Source: Promethearchaeota archaeon
GTDB taxonomy: Archaea > Asgardarchaeota > Lokiarchaeia > Sigyniarchaeales > SOKP01
Reading direction: 5' to 3'
NCBI GenBank assembly: GCA_016840085.1
Contig: JAEOTA010000061.1
Coordinates: forward strand, 1-22,776
DNA: 22,776 nucleotides
Positions 416 to 22,776 of this stretch are shown in pieces; positions within the stretch are counted from its first letter, which is position 1; every line of letters starts with the position of its first letter. The notes beneath the pieces were generated by a model. It made no database searches. It saw nothing but the letters and a program-made list of their open reading frames with translations, and was not told the origin of the DNA. Position numbers and translations under genes: made by a program.

Positions 416-658
416 ATGTCAGATATTATTGAAAGTAATCCGGAAATCCTGGGTGGAAAACCTGTCATTAAGGGAACCAGAATTCCTGTTGCTTTAATCT
501 ATGAATTAATCGGATTAAAATATTCAATAAACGAAATATTAAAAGAATATCCGCATCTGAATCGTAATATTATTATAACTCTCCTTAAGATTGGGAAGGA
601 AGCAAATGAAAACCTCATAAATGTGGACATTGATGAGATTATAAGTAAAGAGATTTAA
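416..658 (+). CDS. DUF433 domain protein (putative antitoxin)
   Basis: The sequence IESNPEILGGKPVIKGTRIPV...EILKEYPHL is the DUF433 signature. Confidence 0.9.
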   Translation: MSDIIESNPEILGGKPVIKGTRIPVALIYELIGLKYSINEILKEYPHLNRNIIITLLKIGKEANENLINVDIDEIISKEI

Positions 659-762
659 TACTTGAAAGGATTTTCAGGATTATTAAAAGTATCAATAATT
701 TCTTCTTTTCTAATGCTGCGGATTCTCATTCGTTCTAATGCGTGCTTAATTAGAGGTTGTTT
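655..762 (-). pseudogene. DUF4258-like toxin fragment
   Basis: The frame reads KQPLIKHALERMRIRSIRKEEIIDTFNNPENPFKY*. HALERMxxRxIxxEEI matches the N-terminus of DUF4258 proteins. It has no start codon of its own ahead of the motif and is truncated. Confidence 0.55.
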
Positions 763-1092
763 TTAAGTATATGGGGAAATTATTTCCCCATATTCTAATG
801 CGTCTATGATGAGAGAAGATCCACTCTTAATTCTTTCAAATTCCTCTGGAGTATAACAGATATAATCAATATGTCTAGGAAAATCAAACTTTTTTAATAA
901 GGAGGGCATTCGTTCAATAAATGGAATTTCTTGGAACAACTTTGACACGATTATTATGTCTAAGTCAGAATTCAATGTAGCATTCCCTTTTAATCGAGAT
1001 CCGAAAATTATGATTGCTTGGGGGTTATATTCTTTAAGTATCTGCGGTAATAATGTCTTTTTAAAAAGTTTAACCAATTTATCATTCTTCAT
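763..1092 (-). CDS. Minimal nucleotidyltransferase (MNT) antitoxin
   Basis: It carries the GS-x10-DxD motif (IIFGSRLKGNATLNSDLDIIIVS) and a C-terminal IDYICYTPEEF. Confidence 0.9.
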   Translation of the reverse strand: MKNDKLVKLFKKTLLPQILKEYNPQAIIIFGSRLKGNATLNSDLDIIIVSKLFQEIPFIERMPSLLKKFDFPRHIDYICYTPEEFERIKSGSSLIIDALEYGEIISPYT

Positions 1093-5016: not shown

Positions 5017-5514
5017 ATGAATATTCATGTTTATGATGCTTGCGCTCTAATTTACTTAACAAAGATCAAAGTTAAAGAGAAATTATCATTATTAGGATCG
5101 GTTATTGTAAGTCCTACAGTCAAAAACGAATTAATTGCAGATATTAACAGATTTTCAGATGCCAAATTACTACAACACAATTTAGATAATAAGATAATTG
5201 AGGAAAGAAAAATAAAGTTGAATGATTTTATCTTTTCTAAAAATCTAGGGAAAGGTGAAAATGAAACCATTATAATTTGTATAAGAAACGAAGGAATCCC
5301 TGTAACAGATGATCATCAAGCTATTAATTATGCTTTGAATTGTGGTTTAAAACCTAAAACATCAGAATTAATATTATTAGATTTATTAAAACAGAATATT
5401 ATTAGTCATAAAGAATTTCAAACATTTTTTAAGGAATTAGCGCACATTAAATCATTAAAACCTGATATTGTATTATTTTTTAAAAATAAATCTGAAGAAA
5501 TTATCTATAAATAG
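5017..5514 (+). CDS. PIN-domain protein (DUF3368-like), putative toxin
   Basis: The PIN acidic residues are present in VYDACALIYL, V.NEL, LGKGENETI and VTDD. Confidence 0.8.
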   Translation: MNIHVYDACALIYLTKIKVKEKLSLLGSVIVSPTVKNELIADINRFSDAKLLQHNLDNKIIEERKIKLNDFIFSKNLGKGENETIIICIRNEGIPVTDDHQAINYALNCGLKPKTSELILLDLLKQNIISHKEFQTFFKELAHIKSLKPDIVLFFKNKSEEIIYK

Positions 5515-5534
5515 CTGAATAAGAGGCAATATAT

Positions 5535-5822
5535 ATGACAAAACAAATGAATTTAAGATTAGACGAGGATCTGATAAAAGAATTTGAAGAACTTGCTGAA
5601 AATGAGAATCTTGATCGCTCCTCATTGATAAAAAAAATATTAATCGAAGGACTTCAAAAAGAACGTTTTAATTTTGCTATAAAAAAGTATGTATTAAAGG
5701 AAATATCAATAGAAAAAGCAGCTGAAATCGCAAAAATATCTCTTCATGAATTTATTTCTAAAATGTCTCAATTGGGAATCCCATCTAATTTATCTTTAGA
5801 AGATTTTAAAAAAATCATGTAA
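5535..5822 (+). CDS. RHH/UPF0175 family protein, putative antitoxin
   Basis: The N-terminus is a ribbon-helix-helix (QMNLRLDEDL...DRSSLIKKIL). The C-terminal ISIEKAAEIAKISLHEF is the UPF0175 motif. It lies next to the PIN gene. Confidence 0.85.
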   Translation: MTKQMNLRLDEDLIKEFEELAENENLDRSSLIKKILIEGLQKERFNFAIKKYVLKEISIEKAAEIAKISLHEFISKMSQLGIPSNLSLEDFKKIM

Positions 5823-6044
5823 TACACCCATTGTTCGTAATATATATAATTTTACGTTCTAAATTAGTAGAAGCAGTAGCTAGTAGATGGAATTTTTGAG
5901 ATTGTTAATTACAATATTCAGTTATATCACAAATCTACACTAAAAATTAGAAGGATTTAGCCAAAGAAGAAAAACTTGCTCCATTAAAATCCAATCAAAA
6001 GTGATTTAATGAAAAAAGCGGCTGATATTAAATGTAGATAAAGG

Positions 6045-6464
6045 CTAAAATTTCCATTTTTCTATTGCTTTATCAAATTCAGTTGTATAACCCGTATGTG
6101 CTGTTAGTAACATCTTCACATTTTCTAACTTAGCGACTTTTCTTAGTGATTCAAGTAATTGTGTAAAGTCTGCACTAATAAATTTGAAAAAAGGTTTGAC
6201 TTTACCTGCTTTCAATCTAAGTAAGTCGTCACTGAATAAATATTCATTATCTATTAGATAGGAAGTATGTCCAAGTCTATGTCCTGGAGTATTTATAGCG
6301 TGAACTTTAATTGCGCCAACCAGAATGAGGTCATTATCTTCCAGAAACTTGTAATTATCTGGATTTTTTACTCTCGAAGCTTTTCCAAAATATATTTTTA
6401 CCTCACTAAAGATTGAAAGGCCACCGATATGATGTGGATCAGGATGTGTAATAAAGACATCCAT
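6045..6464 (-). pseudogene. 5'-truncated MBL-fold hydrolase, paralog of 9433-10119
   Basis: It aligns without gaps to the last 138 aa of the 9433-10119 protein, with 25 differences by manual count. It lacks the N-terminal ~90 aa, and its motifs are altered (HSDPDH to HPDPHH, SGD to SDD). Confidence 0.75.
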
Positions 6465-9270: not shown

Positions 9271-9432
9271 CTATTTTTTCCCCTTATAGAATATAGTTAA
9301 TTTTTGCAATCATTTTAAACTTAAAATTCGGTTAAAAATGGATCATATTTACTTAAAAATTGTTCTTATAAAATAAAGTATTGTAGATATGACTAAGTAG
9401 TTCAAGATTTGAAATAAATATTGATATAATGA

Positions 9433-10119
9433 CTAAATTTTCCATTTATCAATTGCGTTATCAAATTCAGTTGTATAGCCGGTATGCGCTGTGAACAACA
9501 TCTTCACATTTTCTAACTTAGCGACTTTTCTTATTGATTCAAGTAATTGGTCAAAGTCTGCGCTAATAAGTTTGAAAAAAGGTTTGACCTTACCTGCTTT
9601 CAATCTAAGTAAGTCGCCACTGAAGAGGTATTCATTATCTATGAGATAGCAAGTATGTCCAAGTCTATGCCCTGGAGTACTTATAGCTTGAACTTTTATT
9701 GCGCCAACCAGAATGAGCTCATTATTTACCACAAATTTGTAATTATCGTGATGTTGTACCTTCGAATCTTTTCCAAAATAAATTTGTGCCGTACTAAAGA
9801 TTGAAAGGCCACCGATATGATCTGGATCAGAATGTGTGATAAAGACATCTGTAATTTTTTCGGGAATAATATCCATTTTCATTAGTTCTTTTTTCATGCC
9901 TTTTGTAGAAAAACCTGCATCTACAACAACCCTATCAGTACCCTTGGTGTAAATATAAACATTAGCAATTCTATTTTTGATACATACAATATTTTCAGAA
10001 ATATTGCCTGTGGGAGAAAGAGGGAAATTTAATTTATACAGCCAATAAAACACAATCACTATTATAATTAGGATTCCCACTACAATAATTAATATGAAGT
10101 ACCATTCCATAAATATCAT
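9433..10119 (-). CDS. MBL-fold metallo-hydrolase with N-terminal membrane anchor
   Basis: A TM helix spans residues ~5-28. Motifs are VVDAG, THSDPDHIGG, TPGHRLGH, FSGD and TAH. Confidence 0.88.
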   Translation of the reverse strand: MIFMEWYFILIIVVGILIIIVIVFYWLYKLNFPLSPTGNISENIVCIKNRIANVYIYTKGTDRVVVDAGFSTKGMKKELMKMDIIPEKITDVFITHSDPDHIGGLSIFSTAQIYFGKDSKVQHHDNYKFVVNNELILVGAIKVQAISTPGHRLGHTCYLIDNEYLFSGDLLRLKAGKVKPFFKLISADFDQLLESIRKVAKLENVKMLFTAHTGYTTEFDNAIDKWKI

Positions 10120-18695: not shown

Positions 18696-18899
18696 AAAAA
18701 AATAAAAAAAGTTCATCTACGCAGTGATAGGTATAGAAACAGTACTGTTAATTAGAAGTAAAATGAAAAGAATAAAATAACATTTTTTTTCGATGCCAGG
18801 AGATTTCAACTTGTTTTTAGGAGTATTTAGCTCTAATTAATTTATTTACCGATGGTTATATATTTTAACTAAGATATTGTTTCAACTGTAAGTTGAATT

Positions 18900-18927
18900 C
18901 TTATAAAAACTTATAAATTCTTATAAA
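18900..18927. repeat. Three CTTATAAA units at 10-bp period
   Basis: The units lie at 18900, 18910 and 18920 and are preceded by the inverted repeat TTCAACT-GTA-AGTTGAA (18881-18897). Confidence 0.55.
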
Positions 18928-19129
18928 AATCCAAAAAATTACATCTCTCGCTCAGTAAAAATAGAATAATACCCTTTTATATTATCAATTTAGTAAGAAA
19001 TAAAATGGGTGAGGAAAAAAACCAAAATAAATTGTTTATACCTTTCATTGATTTGAACGAAAATAATCATATTCACTTGACTCATTAAATCATTGATTCT
19101 TTATTCAAGTGAAAACTCGAAGGAGCTTC

Positions 19130-19455
19130 AAATTTAAGGAAAAATTTCCTGCCATTTGTAAATGGTTGCTCTCGCAAGTCGGGGATTCTGAGCCTCGTTT
19201 GAAAAAGAGCAGTCCCTCCGGCAAATGGTTCTAAATTTGTGTTTTTTCGAGTATTATGGGATAATTTCCTTCAAAACTTCGGAAATAGAACAAAAAGAGC
19301 TATTAATGAGGTATGTTTTGAACTCGGTGACGAGCATACAGTCTGATAACCTTAGGGCTGGTCTTTCTTAAAAAAGAAGAATTGATAATTAGAATAGAAA
19401 TTTAGATTTTTATAGAAATTTCTAAATTTTTATAAATAATTGTAAGGTTATGTTA
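19130..19455 (+). mobile_element. Decayed 3' end / right end of a TnpB-family element (relative of 22028-22354)
   Basis: It aligns by eye with the 3' end of the tnpB-like gene, e.g. FKEKFPAICKWLLSQVGD vs FKDAIPTIYKWLLAQVGD and RYVLNSVTSIQSDNLRAGLS vs KYVLNLVTSEQPDNLRVGLS. It contains stops and indels. Similarity continues past the stop codon to ...AAGGTT(A/C)TGTTA. Weaker similarity may extend back to ~19035. Confidence 0.88.
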
Positions 19456-19475
19456 ATATGAATAGAGAGATTAAA
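19311..19475 (+). ncRNA. Putative orphan omegaRNA (scaffold to 19455, followed by predicted guide)
   Basis: Conserved hairpins lie at 19339-19360 and 19402-19425. ATAACCTT (19346-19353) is perfectly complementary to AAGGTTAT (19444-19451). The 5' end is uncertain and expression is unknown. Confidence 0.45.
19429..19436 (+). promoter_or_regulatory. Candidate archaeal TATA box for the MNT-HEPN operon
   Basis: TTTATAAA is centred ~26 nt upstream of ATG 19458, the spacing expected for a leaderless archaeal transcript. It lies inside the mobile-element remnant. Confidence 0.5.
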
Positions 19476-19841
19476 CAATTAACTGAAAAATTTTTGGAGC
19501 AATTAAGACATACAAAATATTTTCCTAAAACAGAATTTGCTATTTTGTATGGGTCTTCTCTGGGCAATTATCATTTAGAAAAAAGTGATATAGATATATG
19601 TTTATTCATTGATGCTGAGAAGGAAGATCTTTCAAAAATACGATTAGAATTGTTGAAAAAATTTAATGATAGATTAGATATTCAAATTTTTCAATTACTC
19701 CCATTATATGTTCAGACTGAGGTATTAAAAGGTAAAGTACTTTATGTGAGGAATGAAGAAAGGTTATATGAAATTGCTAACAAGACTATTGAAGAGTATG
19801 AAGAATTTTATCCATTTTATTTGGACTATATCAATCGGTGA
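19458..19841 (+). CDS. MNT nucleotidyltransferase antitoxin (MntA-like)
   Basis: It has the GS-x10-DxD motif (LYGSSLGNYHLEKSDIDI), LDIQIFQLLPLY and a GTGA overlap with the HEPN gene. Confidence 0.9.
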   Translation: MNREIKQLTEKFLEQLRHTKYFPKTEFAILYGSSLGNYHLEKSDIDICLFIDAEKEDLSKIRLELLKKFNDRLDIQIFQLLPLYVQTEVLKGKVLYVRNEERLYEIANKTIEEYEEFYPFYLDYINR

Positions 19842-20284
19842 GTATTTTAAGAATTGATATAATTAAAACAAAACTGAAAATTATTGAAGAAAATATTGAG
19901 TTAGTAGAAGAAAACCTTCCTAATGCTGTAAATGAATTTAAAGGTTTAGGATTAGTTAAGGATGGTATTTATAAAAGAATTGAGACATCAATTCAAGAAG
20001 TTTTGAATATTTGTTCAATAATTAATTCGGATTTAAAACTAGGTATTCCCTCTAATAGAGATGATATCATTATCACATTAACAGAGAATAATATTTTATC
20101 ACAAAAAATGGGTGAAAAAGTTAAAGAGATGAAGGGATTTAGAAATTTTTTAGTGCACCGTTATGGAAAAATTAATGATGACGTTGCATTTAAAGATATT
20201 AAAAAAGGTTTAACTGATTTCGAATTATTTAAGAAAGAAATTCTTAATTTCTTAAAAAAATCTACAGAGATTCCAGATGACTAA
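19838..20284 (+). CDS. HEPN/DUF86 ribonuclease toxin (HepT-like)
   Basis: The R-x4-H-x-Y motif is intact (GFRNFLVHRYG), and the gene is coupled to the MNT gene. Confidence 0.92.
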   Translation: MSILRIDIIKTKLKIIEENIELVEENLPNAVNEFKGLGLVKDGIYKRIETSIQEVLNICSIINSDLKLGIPSNRDDIIITLTENNILSQKMGEKVKEMKGFRNFLVHRYGKINDDVAFKDIKKGLTDFELFKKEILNFLKKSTEIPDD

Positions 20285-20550
20285 AAGCATAAAACCTATT
20301 TAGAGGGTGTTAATTAATGATTCTGGAAATTTCTTATACTAATTAAATTCTTTAAAAATATAGAATAGTTGTACAGGATATTTTTAAAATGGAAATTTCA
20401 TTATTTAGCACGATGATTTCACTAAAAATTGCATATGAAGTTATTACTTTTATTTATTGAAAGTCTTCTACTAAAACGCAATATATATAATATCGTGTTA
20501 TATTATTCTTATGGCGGAAATCGATTTTTTTTTAACCTTTCTTATTATAT

Positions 20551-20757
20551 GAAAAGAAAGAGAAGAAAAGAAATAGTATTACAACCATTATTGATATTAT
20601 CTGTCTTGCGTATGAAAATATGTGTGATATAGTTGTGTTGGTATCTGAAGACAGTGATTTTGTGTCTATCGTAAAAAGAATGAAAGAATTGGATAAAATT
20701 GTGGAAATATGAGCATTTAGATATTCATTAACGAATGCCTTAAAGGAAGAATTCTAG
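20551..20757 (+). pseudogene. NYN (LabA/DUF88) domain remnant
   Basis: The frame reads EKKEKKRNSITTIIDIICLAYENMCDIVVLVSEDSDFVSIVKRMKELDKIVEI*AFRYSLTNALKEEF*. This matches the NYN pattern 'D..VLVSGDxDF..V...KE.GK.VE'. There is an internal TGA at 20710 and the 5' part is decayed. Confidence 0.78.
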
Positions 20758-20759
20758 CA

Positions 20760-22354
20760 AGAAAAACCATAACCAGTTTTTCTATAAATACTTAAAATTA
20801 GAGAGATTACTAGATGAAGCAAACCATCAAATTTCGATTGCATCCGACGGCTTCACAAGAACAGAAATTACATGAAATTTTCACTATCTATAATAAAATA
20901 AAGCGAATAGGATTTAATCGTTATTTTGAGTTAAGACATACCGATTTCACTAAGAATGAAAAACGATTATTTGTTCAACATCATTTGATGGAACTCTGCC
21001 ATAATAATCCTTATGTTAATAGTGTCCTCATAGATTGTGAGACTAAGTTAGCCCAGCAACACACATGGTATGACAAACGTGAGAAGTATTTAAAACATCA
21101 AATTATTACAATTAAGAAGAAGATTAAACAGGTAAGGGAAAAAAGCAAGAAAGATAGACGTTTAAAAGGGTTATATTCACGTCTGTCATCAGTTCAGAAT
21201 AACTTATTTGCGTTGCGATTTAAACCAATTGTATTTGGAACAAAACGGTTATTTCGGGAGCGAATTTTAGGCAAAATTAGCAGAGATGAGTTTAGAATTA
21301 GGAGAGACTCTTCATTTTGCTGTGTGGGAAAGAAACAAGGAGTGAATTTAAACTTGAAAATTCTCCCCGACATGACACTTAAAGTTCGTACCTTTTCTAA
21401 AGAAAAAGCTCAGAGGTGGTTGCTCATCCCTTTTATCGTAAATTACAAGCAAGAACAATGGTTTGAGGAAATACTCGATTTGGAATTATATACTGTGTCT
21501 GTAGTGAGACGTTTAATTAAAGGAAACTTAAGATATTTTGCTCATGTTTCATATGAGATTCCTGAAGAAGAACTCAAGTATGGTTTTAAAAATGGAGCTG
21601 TCGGGCTTGATATGAATTATAATTTTGTTTCTCTCTGTAATGTCGATAAAGTGGGTAATTTCAAGAGTTTTCATGAAATTAAATTTAGAAACTTGCATTC
21701 TTATCGTAAATACAAGAGTACTGATTATATAAGTTATAAGATGGATAAAGTAGTTAATTATTGCATCAATAAAAAAAAAGGGTTAGTGATTGAAGATCTT
21801 TCTTTTGAACAAGAATTCTCATATGGAAGAAGACGCAATAGAAAATTAAGTAATTTTAAAACTTCCGCATTAATTTTATTAGAAAGAAAATGCTTAAAAA
21901 GAGGTGTCGCTGTTAGAAAAGTACATCCTGCCTATACCTCTTTAATTGGCAAGTATAAATATTTACGCTCACGTAATTTATCTACTCACATATTAGCAAG
22001 TTACGTGATTGCTCGAAAAGGTCTGGGATTTAAGGATGCGATTCCAACCATTTATAAGTGGTTACTTGCACAAGTCGGGGACGTTATAAAGCCCCGTTTG
22101 AAACCAAGCACTCCCTACTATAACTGGGCTAAACTCCACGATTTTTTCAAGCATAGCGGGATAACGTCCTTCAAGACTTCCGAAGTAATGAAAAAAACCT
22201 TACGAATGAAGTATGTCTTGAACTTGGTGACGAGCGAACAGCCTGATAACCTTAGGGTTGGTCTTTCCCCCACAGGAAAGGTTGATGATTGGAATAAATT
22301 TTGGAATTTTATAGAAATTACCAATTTTTTATAAATAATTAGAAGGTTCTGTTA
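20760..22354 (+). mobile_element. Non-autonomous tnpB-only element (IS1341-like organisation)
   Basis: No transposase is adjacent. The right boundary is fixed by the point where similarity to the remnant stops (GTTA at 22354). The left boundary is approximate, at the hairpin AGAAAAAC-N8-GTTTTTCT (20760-20783). Confidence 0.6.
20814..22334 (+). CDS. tnpB: TnpB-related RuvC protein (IS200/IS605-IS607 accessory protein)
   Basis: The N-terminus TIKFRLHPTASQEQKL is an OrfB-type start. RuvC-I is AVGLDMN and RuvC-II is LVIEDL, followed by VRKVHPAYTS and THILASYVIARKGLG. There is no CxxC zinc finger and there is a ~100-aa C-terminal tail. Confidence 0.88.
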   Translation: MKQTIKFRLHPTASQEQKLHEIFTIYNKIKRIGFNRYFELRHTDFTKNEKRLFVQHHLMELCHNNPYVNSVLIDCETKLAQQHTWYDKREKYLKHQIITIKKKIKQVREKSKKDRRLKGLYSRLSSVQNNLFALRFKPIVFGTKRLFRERILGKISRDEFRIRRDSSFCCVGKKQGVNLNLKILPDMTLKVRTFSKEKAQRWLLIPFIVNYKQEQWFEEILDLELYTVSVVRRLIKGNLRYFAHVSYEIPEEELKYGFKNGAVGLDMNYNFVSLCNVDKVGNFKSFHEIKFRNLHSYRKYKSTDYISYKMDKVVNYCINKKKGLVIEDLSFEQEFSYGRRRNRKLSNFKTSALILLERKCLKRGVAVRKVHPAYTSLIGKYKYLRSRNLSTHILASYVIARKGLGFKDAIPTIYKWLLAQVGDVIKPRLKPSTPYYNWAKLHDFFKHSGITSFKTSEVMKKTLRMKYVLNLVTSEQPDNLRVGLSPTGKVDDWNKFWNFIEITNFL

Positions 22355-22374
22355 CCACTACATATATTATTATA
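22211..22374 (+). ncRNA. Putative omegaRNA overlapping the tnpB 3' end (scaffold to 22354, predicted guide CCACTACATATATTATTATA)
   Basis: TnpB omegaRNAs are known to overlap the gene's 3' end. Hairpins at 22239-22260 and 22301-22324 are conserved in the remnant. AACCTT (22248-22253) is complementary to AAGGTT (22343-22348). Confidence 0.6.
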
Positions 22375-22420: not shown

Positions 22421-22774
22421 TTAATTTGAACTTAGATAATTCTTGCAGAATTCTTCTGATGTGCAAATTTTTATAATGTTCTTTCCTCGATTAAATTTTC
22501 CATCATTAGTGATTAAGAATGACACTTTCTCATGTAAAGAAGCTGCGACAATAATGCTATCGGGTAATCTAAGATTTGTTTCACTTCGAATTTTTGCCGA
22601 TTGATCAGCTAATCTCCTATCCAAATTAACGATTATGTAATTATCTTGCGAATATAACTTCGAAATATATTCATCTTTCTCTTTAGGTTTGTGTATATTA
22701 TAGTAACCTACGCATAGTTCTGCAATTGTAATAATCGAAATAACTCCTTTTAATTGCCCGTCTTCAATCGCATC
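22421..22774 (-). CDS. VapC/PIN-domain toxin (5' end outside window)
   Basis: The frame is open to the window edge: DAIEDGQLKGVISIITIAELCVG...LRLPDSIIVAASL...LITNDGKF. Confidence 0.88.
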   Translation of the reverse strand, partial: DAIEDGQLKGVISIITIAELCVGYYNIHKPKEKDEYISKLYSQDNYIIVNLDRRLADQSAKIRSETNLRLPDSIIVAASLHEKVSFLITNDGKFNRGKNIIKICTSEEFCKNYLSSN

Positions 22775-22776
22775 TA

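Follow-up and report, generated by a model that had tools for sequence, protein, structure and literature searches.

A protein-free IS607-type mini-element with a predicted omegaRNA scaffold in front of the mntA-hepT operon of a Promethearchaeota genome

The DNA analysed was a stretch of 22,776 nucleotides from a Promethearchaeota archaeon (GenBank assembly GCA_016840085.1, contig JAEOTA010000061.1), here called the window, which is contig C56 of the source genome (G000; 4.7 Mb, 29.5% GC, 98.8% complete). Judged by its sequence, the segment from 18877 to 19449, counting both TT dinucleotides, is a complete, protein-free, non-autonomous mini-element of the IS607 type, 573 bases long, and carries a conserved structured scaffold that is homologous to a tnpB-linked predicted omegaRNA and stops at the element end. 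The ends, the target, the empty allele, the family and the constraint at the RNA level are the established part of this account. The element, hereafter the orphan, probably stems from a long-lived, gene-less Promethearchaeota lineage and would serve as a standalone omegaRNA that uses TnpB in trans and guards its own empty site. Genomes compared are labelled G###, family loci L###, contigs of G000 C# and sequencing runs X#; elements shorter than 1.1 kb that have both ends are called minis.

Boundaries and anatomy of the orphan

The initial annotation described 19130-19455 as a coding-dead relative of the tnpB 3' end further downstream. The duplication is real and far above chance, since 19132-19455 aligned with 22028-22354, 2.9 kb away, at 75% identity over 330 nt (expectation value, E, 6e-51), and with the second tnpB copy of the genome, on contig C5, at 76% identity. 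The old tnpB frame is indeed dead, with five stops plus indels, and the longest open reading frame (ORF) of the orphan is 59 aa. The view of the segment as a 3' relative starting at 19130 had to be given up: tnpB homology begins at about 19030 and is preceded by left-end DNA (18877-18960) that matches the region upstream of the C5 tnpB, of L199 and of many other family members. The order is thus left end, scaffold of about 380 nt, right end. Descent as a decayed duplicate of the neighbouring tnpB was rejected, the orphan being equally distant from the C5 copy and belonging to a different lineage.

Element ends were located with nucleotide hidden Markov models (HMMs) of the left and right end, and a guide length of 20 nt was assumed in all guide predictions. 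The end motif quoted earlier is present in both copies, but the elements finish at 19449 and 22348, in AAGG followed by TT, and not at 19455 and 22354. The later ends were ruled out by the AAGGTT ends, with which 114 of the 129 distinct right ends finish, the sequence being variable beyond, and by the empty alleles. In G076, 96% identical over mntA-hepT, position 18878 is joined straight to 19450 with a single shared TT; run X7, from a separate study and independent of that genome, contains the identical empty joint, with 571 nt skipped and TT on either side. The six bases after 19449 are therefore host DNA, and they are conserved among mntA orthologues. Contigs from three sequencing runs depart from the window at 22348. 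With these ends the guides begin at 19450 and 22349, so that the starts proposed earlier (19456 and 22355) lie 6 nt too late, and the TGTTA common to both flanks is a coincidence, such agreement between a random pair of guides having a frequency of 0.5%. In run X5 the filled mini junctions are covered and most of tnpB is not; the missing cover carries no weight. The parts of the orphan are as follows.

18875..18878, + strand: target motif and predicted target-adjacent motif (TAM) TATT, with crossover core TT at 18877-18878; TATT in 56/64 elements, empty alleles in G076 and X7
18879..18960, + strand: IS607-type left end; three TTATAAA-type repeats at 10-nt spacing (18901, 18911, 18921); left-end HMM 52.6 bits, E 2e-13 in the genome
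19067..19449, + strand: predicted omegaRNA scaffold, about 380 nt, from tnpB codons ~383-506, frame dead; fold, pair retention and covariation (5' limit set by the first conserved helix and not by mapping of an RNA end)
19400..19449, + strand: right end, AAGG plus core TT (19448-19449); empty alleles and right-end alignment
19450..19469, + strand: predicted mini guide in the host flank, 8 nt of leader and the first four mntA codons; identical at 20/20 positions to the sequence that follows TATT in the empty allele of G076

The element family and the conserved RNA scaffold

Both ends were found for 65 elements, of which 41 measure at least 1.1 kb and 24 are minis (216-1044 bp) spread over 14 genomes and six genera at differing TATT sites. 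The same ends enclose a tnpA of the MerR-helix-turn-helix (HTH)/resolvase kind in eight elements of 2.2-2.4 kb, and L199 is an intact autonomous copy in which tnpA (PF13411/PF00239) stands beside a tnpB whose product is 93% identical to the TnpB of the window. Short TTATAAA-type repeats are phased near both ends and inverted, those of the orphan's left end running opposite to its right-end repeats, and there are no true terminal inverted repeats. The same dinucleotide, TT, is found at each junction and a single time in the empty target, which could formally also be read as a 2-bp duplication. Autonomous copies with an HTH serine-recombinase TnpA before tnpB, phased repeats and a shared dinucleotide together make up the anatomy of IS607. 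The GG core typical of described IS607 members is replaced by TT, with GG directly before it; the left flank reads TATT in 56 of 64 elements and TT in 62 of 64 at each position. On these sequence features the family is an IS607 variant with a TT core and a TATT target, and by analogy with CboIStron its TAM should be TATT.

The minis were searched with 3'-end queries, and retention of the scaffold in every deletion derivative cannot be claimed from such a set. In the tree, 14 of 15 minis fell on one side of a branch supported at 100/98, and the terminal branch of the orphan was short. Some 5' part of tnpB was found in 11 of the 14 mini-bearing genomes, as expected from shared ancestry and hence without evidential weight. 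Insertions at most 20 nt before a start codon numbered 5/96, against 19/3000 in a null set whose criteria differ and which includes coding sites.

A consensus structure was derived from 38 intact elements only, and the minis were then mapped onto it. The orphan retains 71 of the 76 pairs so defined, compared with 61.9 expected from its own substitution load (0/2000 simulations reached this), its substitution rate being 0.16 in stems and 0.35 elsewhere, and some double changes are unseen in the intact set, e.g., 19077/19108 and 19079/19106. Pair retention exceeded the null in 14/15 minis (p <0.02), namely those on the one side of the 100/98 branch, the orphan keeping as many pairs as any; the exception, L113 (64 vs 61.9 expected, no excess), nests among the intact elements and serves as an independently decayed control. 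Because part of the divergence could predate gene loss, minis, which share stops, were also compared with one another, and pairs were again kept in excess in 12 of 13 comparisons (p <0.05). In the mini alignment 86% of cells pair, as opposed to 41-49% in slid controls; 33 pairs show double changes, compared with 20 in shuffles; and G-U pairs number 183 vs 45 for A-C. Codon periodicity is gone in an eight-member mini clade (0.198/0.196/0.176 vs 0.214/0.134/0.274 in intact copies). The fold is stronger on the plus strand (z -4.6) than on the reverse strand (z -1.2) and reaches z -6.1 for 19070-19449, and the left part of the element is unstructured (z +0.4). An Rfam scan of the window returned no relevant family, neither a match for the scaffold nor a group I intron. 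The length of about 380 nt lies inside the 79-466 nt spanned by processed omegaRNAs (PMC10278001). Lost codon periodicity together with kept, intact-defined pairs indicates that selection acts on the RNA, and the comparative sequence data thus place the RNA structure of the minis under selection. The earlier suggestion that the RNA-like part is better preserved than the reading frame was borne out by the fold, pair-retention, periodicity and covariation tests alike, and the possibility of a second, protein-less omegaRNA locus serving TnpB in trans is well supported by the comparative evidence.

Several further members of the family were recorded. A subfamily of 626-646 bp minis in G091-G094 (genus g22; e.g., L100, L101, L226, L228-L231), with several copies per genome at 72-90% identity, is the best material for a covariance model. 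L046 (JANBVM010000002.1) lies on a contig labelled Patescibacteria. In a more distant subfamily (L144-L172; about 60% identity at the protein level) the right end is likewise AAGGTT, and the left end was not detected by the left-end HMM. Within G000, a solo 55-bp right end without scaffold lies at C69:112873-112927, and a short decayed tnpB scrap (L011) at C22:7392-7574, near a gene resembling cas6.

TnpB, the toxin-antitoxin operon and the weighing of explanations

The 506-aa TnpB-like ORF and the mntA-hepT toxin-antitoxin (TA) operon of the initial annotation are both present. Their features, with those around them, are listed here.

18856..18863, + strand: native putative TATA box of mntA-hepT (host), now facing into the mini; motif upstream of 17/19 mntA orthologues
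19458..19841, + strand: mntA, MNT antitoxin (type VII TA), intact; NF047752 at E 5e-14, its score of 52 being under the cut-off of 60; PF18765
19838..20284, + strand: hepT, HEPN RNase toxin, GTG start, intact, RX4HXY motif; NF047751 90.6 bits, above cut-off; PF01934
20605..20758, + strand: decayed gene fragment (20520-20760 in a wider delimitation) joined to the tnpB upstream region at the expected place of the left end; 75% to G000 C5:23487-23647
20814..22334, + strand: TnpB, 506 aa, intact, D266-E327-H392, no zinc finger (RIIIr-4 type)
21963..22348, + strand: cognate predicted omegaRNA scaffold and right end, core TT 22347-22348; consensus fold of 38 intact copies, loose ends in three runs
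22349..22368, + strand: predicted guide of the tnpB element in the host flank; boundary from right ends

Close homologues of the TnpB ORF are almost all in Promethearchaeota (Lokiarchaeia) records. D266, E327 and H392 were invariant in 17 homologues, His392 replacing the RuvC-III Asp, and no CxxC pair (no C4 zinc finger) was present. TnpB thus carries the RIIIr-4 signature, the clade being assigned by motif and not by tree. The AlphaFold model was mediocre (predicted template modelling score, pTM, 0.47), with a fold nearest to Cas12f and RuvC at weak scores. No left-end HMM match was obtained for the tnpB element of the window, and its tnpA is also gone. The fragment at 20605..20758, which we take to be NYN-like, has an intact homologue at G000 C5:23444-23941, and run X7 continues the gene past 20758. 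The genomes searched yielded no empty allele of the full tnpB element; a contig of run X7 joins at 22347. The second intact tnpB element, at G000 C5:65588-67371, has 78% protein identity, both ends, a TATT flank and a 25-aa C-terminal scrap of tnpA.

The orphan was inserted 8 nt before the start codon of mntA. In the empty allele the ATG comes 31 nt after the start of the native TATA box, which the insertion now parts from mntA. The right end of the orphan has TTTATAAA at 19429-19436, 29 nt before the mntA ATG; TTTATAAA is a possible replacement TATA box, and the native box would drive transcription into the scaffold. The element is absent from all 19 mntA orthologues in the family, 11 of which have TATT at the same spot, within a conserved promoter region; the remnant-MNT junction, whose conservation in related genomes had been put forward as a check, is thus absent from them. 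A TATT-plus-guide target was sought in G000 for four guides and none was found, nothing matching beyond a 9-nt seed. No recurring TA family was seen among the 25 commonest genes beside 100 other right ends. One other of 107 flanks matches this operon, namely that of mini L057:1-420 (JAHLWH010000046.1), an independent insertion at TATT inside a hepT orthologue (86% identical), at about codon 16, which breaks the toxin gene. In G068 (L021; C84:45991-50700) the operon is flanked on both sides, by an unrelated tnpB-like gene of the IS605 type immediately ahead of the mntA promoter and by an intact family element 1.4 kb downstream of hepT. The mntA-hepT region is TA-rich, tolerates insertions and attracts them. 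Absence from all 19 orthologues and the unrelated sites of the relatives' minis leave a retained functional link to the TA module, as first envisaged, unsupported, and the filled allele reads GGTT, not TATT; judged by these sequence comparisons, the connection is most likely positional and incidental. The alternative first offered, an older insertion at a hotspot, is half right: an independent insertion in a hotspot fits the location, but the orphan is not decaying scrap.

Further TA-like genes lie at window positions 416-1092, 5017-5822 and 22421-22776; we take them to be DUF433-like, MNT, PIN with a UPF0175-like partner, and a further PIN gene (PF01850), whose assignment is backed by a profile test. 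A 90% identical duplication at 6038-6337 and 9426-9725 comprises two metallo-beta-lactamase-fold-like ORFs, the first copy 5' truncated.

For the orphan itself, the following course is proposed. A serine-recombinase TnpA supplied in trans would have inserted the mini at TATT. Transcription running through the right end into the flank would yield the scaffold of about 380 nt plus a guide matching the element's own empty site, and this RNA would be loaded by a TnpB of the family from another locus (20814-22334 or the C5 copy). Attack on empty alleles with homologous repair has been characterised for IS605/IS607 elements (PMC10055086, 10.1101/2023.11.20.567912), and TnpB may likewise attack TATT-plus-guide alleles that lack the element, with repair restoring or spreading the mini. 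Such cutting of element-free alleles, which had been suggested from the window alone, is well supported by comparison with G076, whose empty allele has TATT and matches the guide at 20/20 positions. The filled allele would escape, GGTT standing in place of TATT, and self-cutting would so be avoided. The guide would read into mntA merely through the landing place, and the TA operon is probably still expressed, via the TATA-like box of the right end or by read-through.

Several observations weigh against this account. The search for a cognate tnpA in G000, which is 98.8% complete, yielded nothing but the 25-aa scrap that precedes the C5 copy, so excision of the orphan may be rare today. The orphan scaffold shares only 75% identity with either intact copy, compatibility with their TnpB being assumed, and where 41 of the 65 left ends have a TTTAAA box the orphan has TAAAAA. 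The simulations were simple and the sequences related, which inflates pair counts, yet the tests agree. TnpB has His for the third catalytic Asp. The RIIIr-4 clade is supposed active by its authors (PMC10691335), the text of a survey of 59 orthologues gives an RII-r5 protein as its sole active rearranged example (PMC10278001), and a literature search found no text that reports activity for the RIIIr-4 clade.

The degenerate left-end box, the lack of a tnpA in G000 and the 25% divergence from the resident TnpB scaffolds would all suit an orphan that has fallen silent, being neither expressed nor loaded today, and is retained only because its right end does not shut off the TA operon, the lineage having been selected for RNA structure earlier. 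We consider this unlikely, as the orphan keeps as many pairs as any mini on a short terminal branch, the native mntA TATA box points into it, and intact TnpB genes occur twice in G000. A still less likely arrangement, to which we give little credence, is that the right end supplies the TATA box of the TA operon, and that an mntA allele which has lost the element by excision, or arrives without it, again shows TATT at its start site and becomes a target for cutting or silencing by the D-E-H TnpB. The host would then be tied to the element through the toxin, and with the neighbouring right end the orphan could also form a composite that moves TA and TnpB.

A domesticated trans-acting guide that regulates the operon, by TldR-like repression or as an addiction circuit, is very improbable. 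It would draw on a guide covering the likely start site and first codons of mntA, on the non-canonical D-E-H site of TnpB, and on the second, independent mini inside a hepT orthologue; against it stand the 19 element-free orthologues, the lack in G000 of any TATT-plus-guide site beyond the seed, the absence of a recurring TA family beside other right ends, and the intact mobile ends of an element whose relatives occupy many other sites. A TldR-like repressor was rejected on these grounds and because D266 and E327 are invariant and the guides differ per copy. Equally hard to credit is a 3.5-kb composite IS607 element, from the mini left end (18877) to the tnpB right end (22348), carrying the TA operon and TnpB. 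Its outer ends are correctly oriented, the tnpB copy lacks a left end of its own, and its excision would leave TATT followed by the 22349 guide, in itself a consistent target; in relatives, though, mntA natively stands right behind TATT, the two elements are merely 75% alike, and no second copy and no 18878-22349 joint were seen in the genomes and runs examined. Slightest of all is the chance that the conserved pairing reflects a DNA-level or intron-like feature (palindromes or IStron-type self-splicing) and no guide scaffold. IS607 IStrons exist, and splicing would silence an insertion in a 5' leader, but an IStron was rejected on the lack of an Rfam group I match and the unstructured left part; moreover, the G-U/A-C asymmetry indicates a plus-strand RNA, and the structured part falls on the 3' end of tnpB, the usual place of omegaRNAs.

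Significance and comparison with known systems

The kind of element is known, and the variant consists in the TT/TATT target rule plus an undescribed scaffold. The TT core and TATT target depart from the GG rule of IS607 and predict a matching AT-rich TAM; minis freed from coding yield covariation that maps a scaffold of about 380 nt without an Rfam model; and scaffold, end and TAM prediction together make a D-E-H TnpB of the RIIIr-4 type directly testable. The comparison of minis further indicates that selection on standalone omegaRNAs continues once the gene is lost. The TA connection adds little to the significance of the find.

Standalone omegaRNAs acting in trans and omegaRNA-bearing palindrome-associated transposable elements (PATEs) have already been described (PMC10691335, crediting Altae-Tran 2021; PMC10055086). 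The orphan resembles them as a protein-less mobile element with both ends and a predicted omegaRNA, a guide taken from the right flank, and effector and transposase that would act in trans; it differs in its IS607 serine-recombinase ends in place of IS200/605 hairpin ends, its scaffold of about 380 nt without an Rfam match, and its Asgard host. With IS607/IS1535 (PMC6188088), CboIStron (10.1101/2023.11.20.567912) and ISXfa1 (PMC10711439) the family shares a MerR-HTH plus resolvase tnpA before tnpB, phased inverted short repeats at the ends, the same dinucleotide at junctions and target, and a predicted scaffold and TAM that both end in the core. Described IS607 members have a GG crossover and G-rich TAMs (PMC6188088, PMC10711439, 10.1101/2023.11.20.567912 and a 2026 review, PMC13565253), CboIStron having the TAM TGGG and a scaffold ending in the core (10.1101/2023.11.20.567912), whereas the present family has a TT core, a TATT target and no intron. 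Like RIIIr-4 proteins (PMC10691335), TnpB shows Asp to His in RuvC-III, lacks the C4 zinc finger and keeps the RuvC-I D and RuvC-II E, but its RuvC-III is followed by about 100 aa whose coding region overlaps the scaffold, and there is no MazE/ribbon-helix-helix (RHH) partner. The operon, with its overlapping MNT and HEPN genes and canonical motifs, resembles type VII MntA-HepT systems in every respect, shows nothing unusual, and serves as the insertion site.

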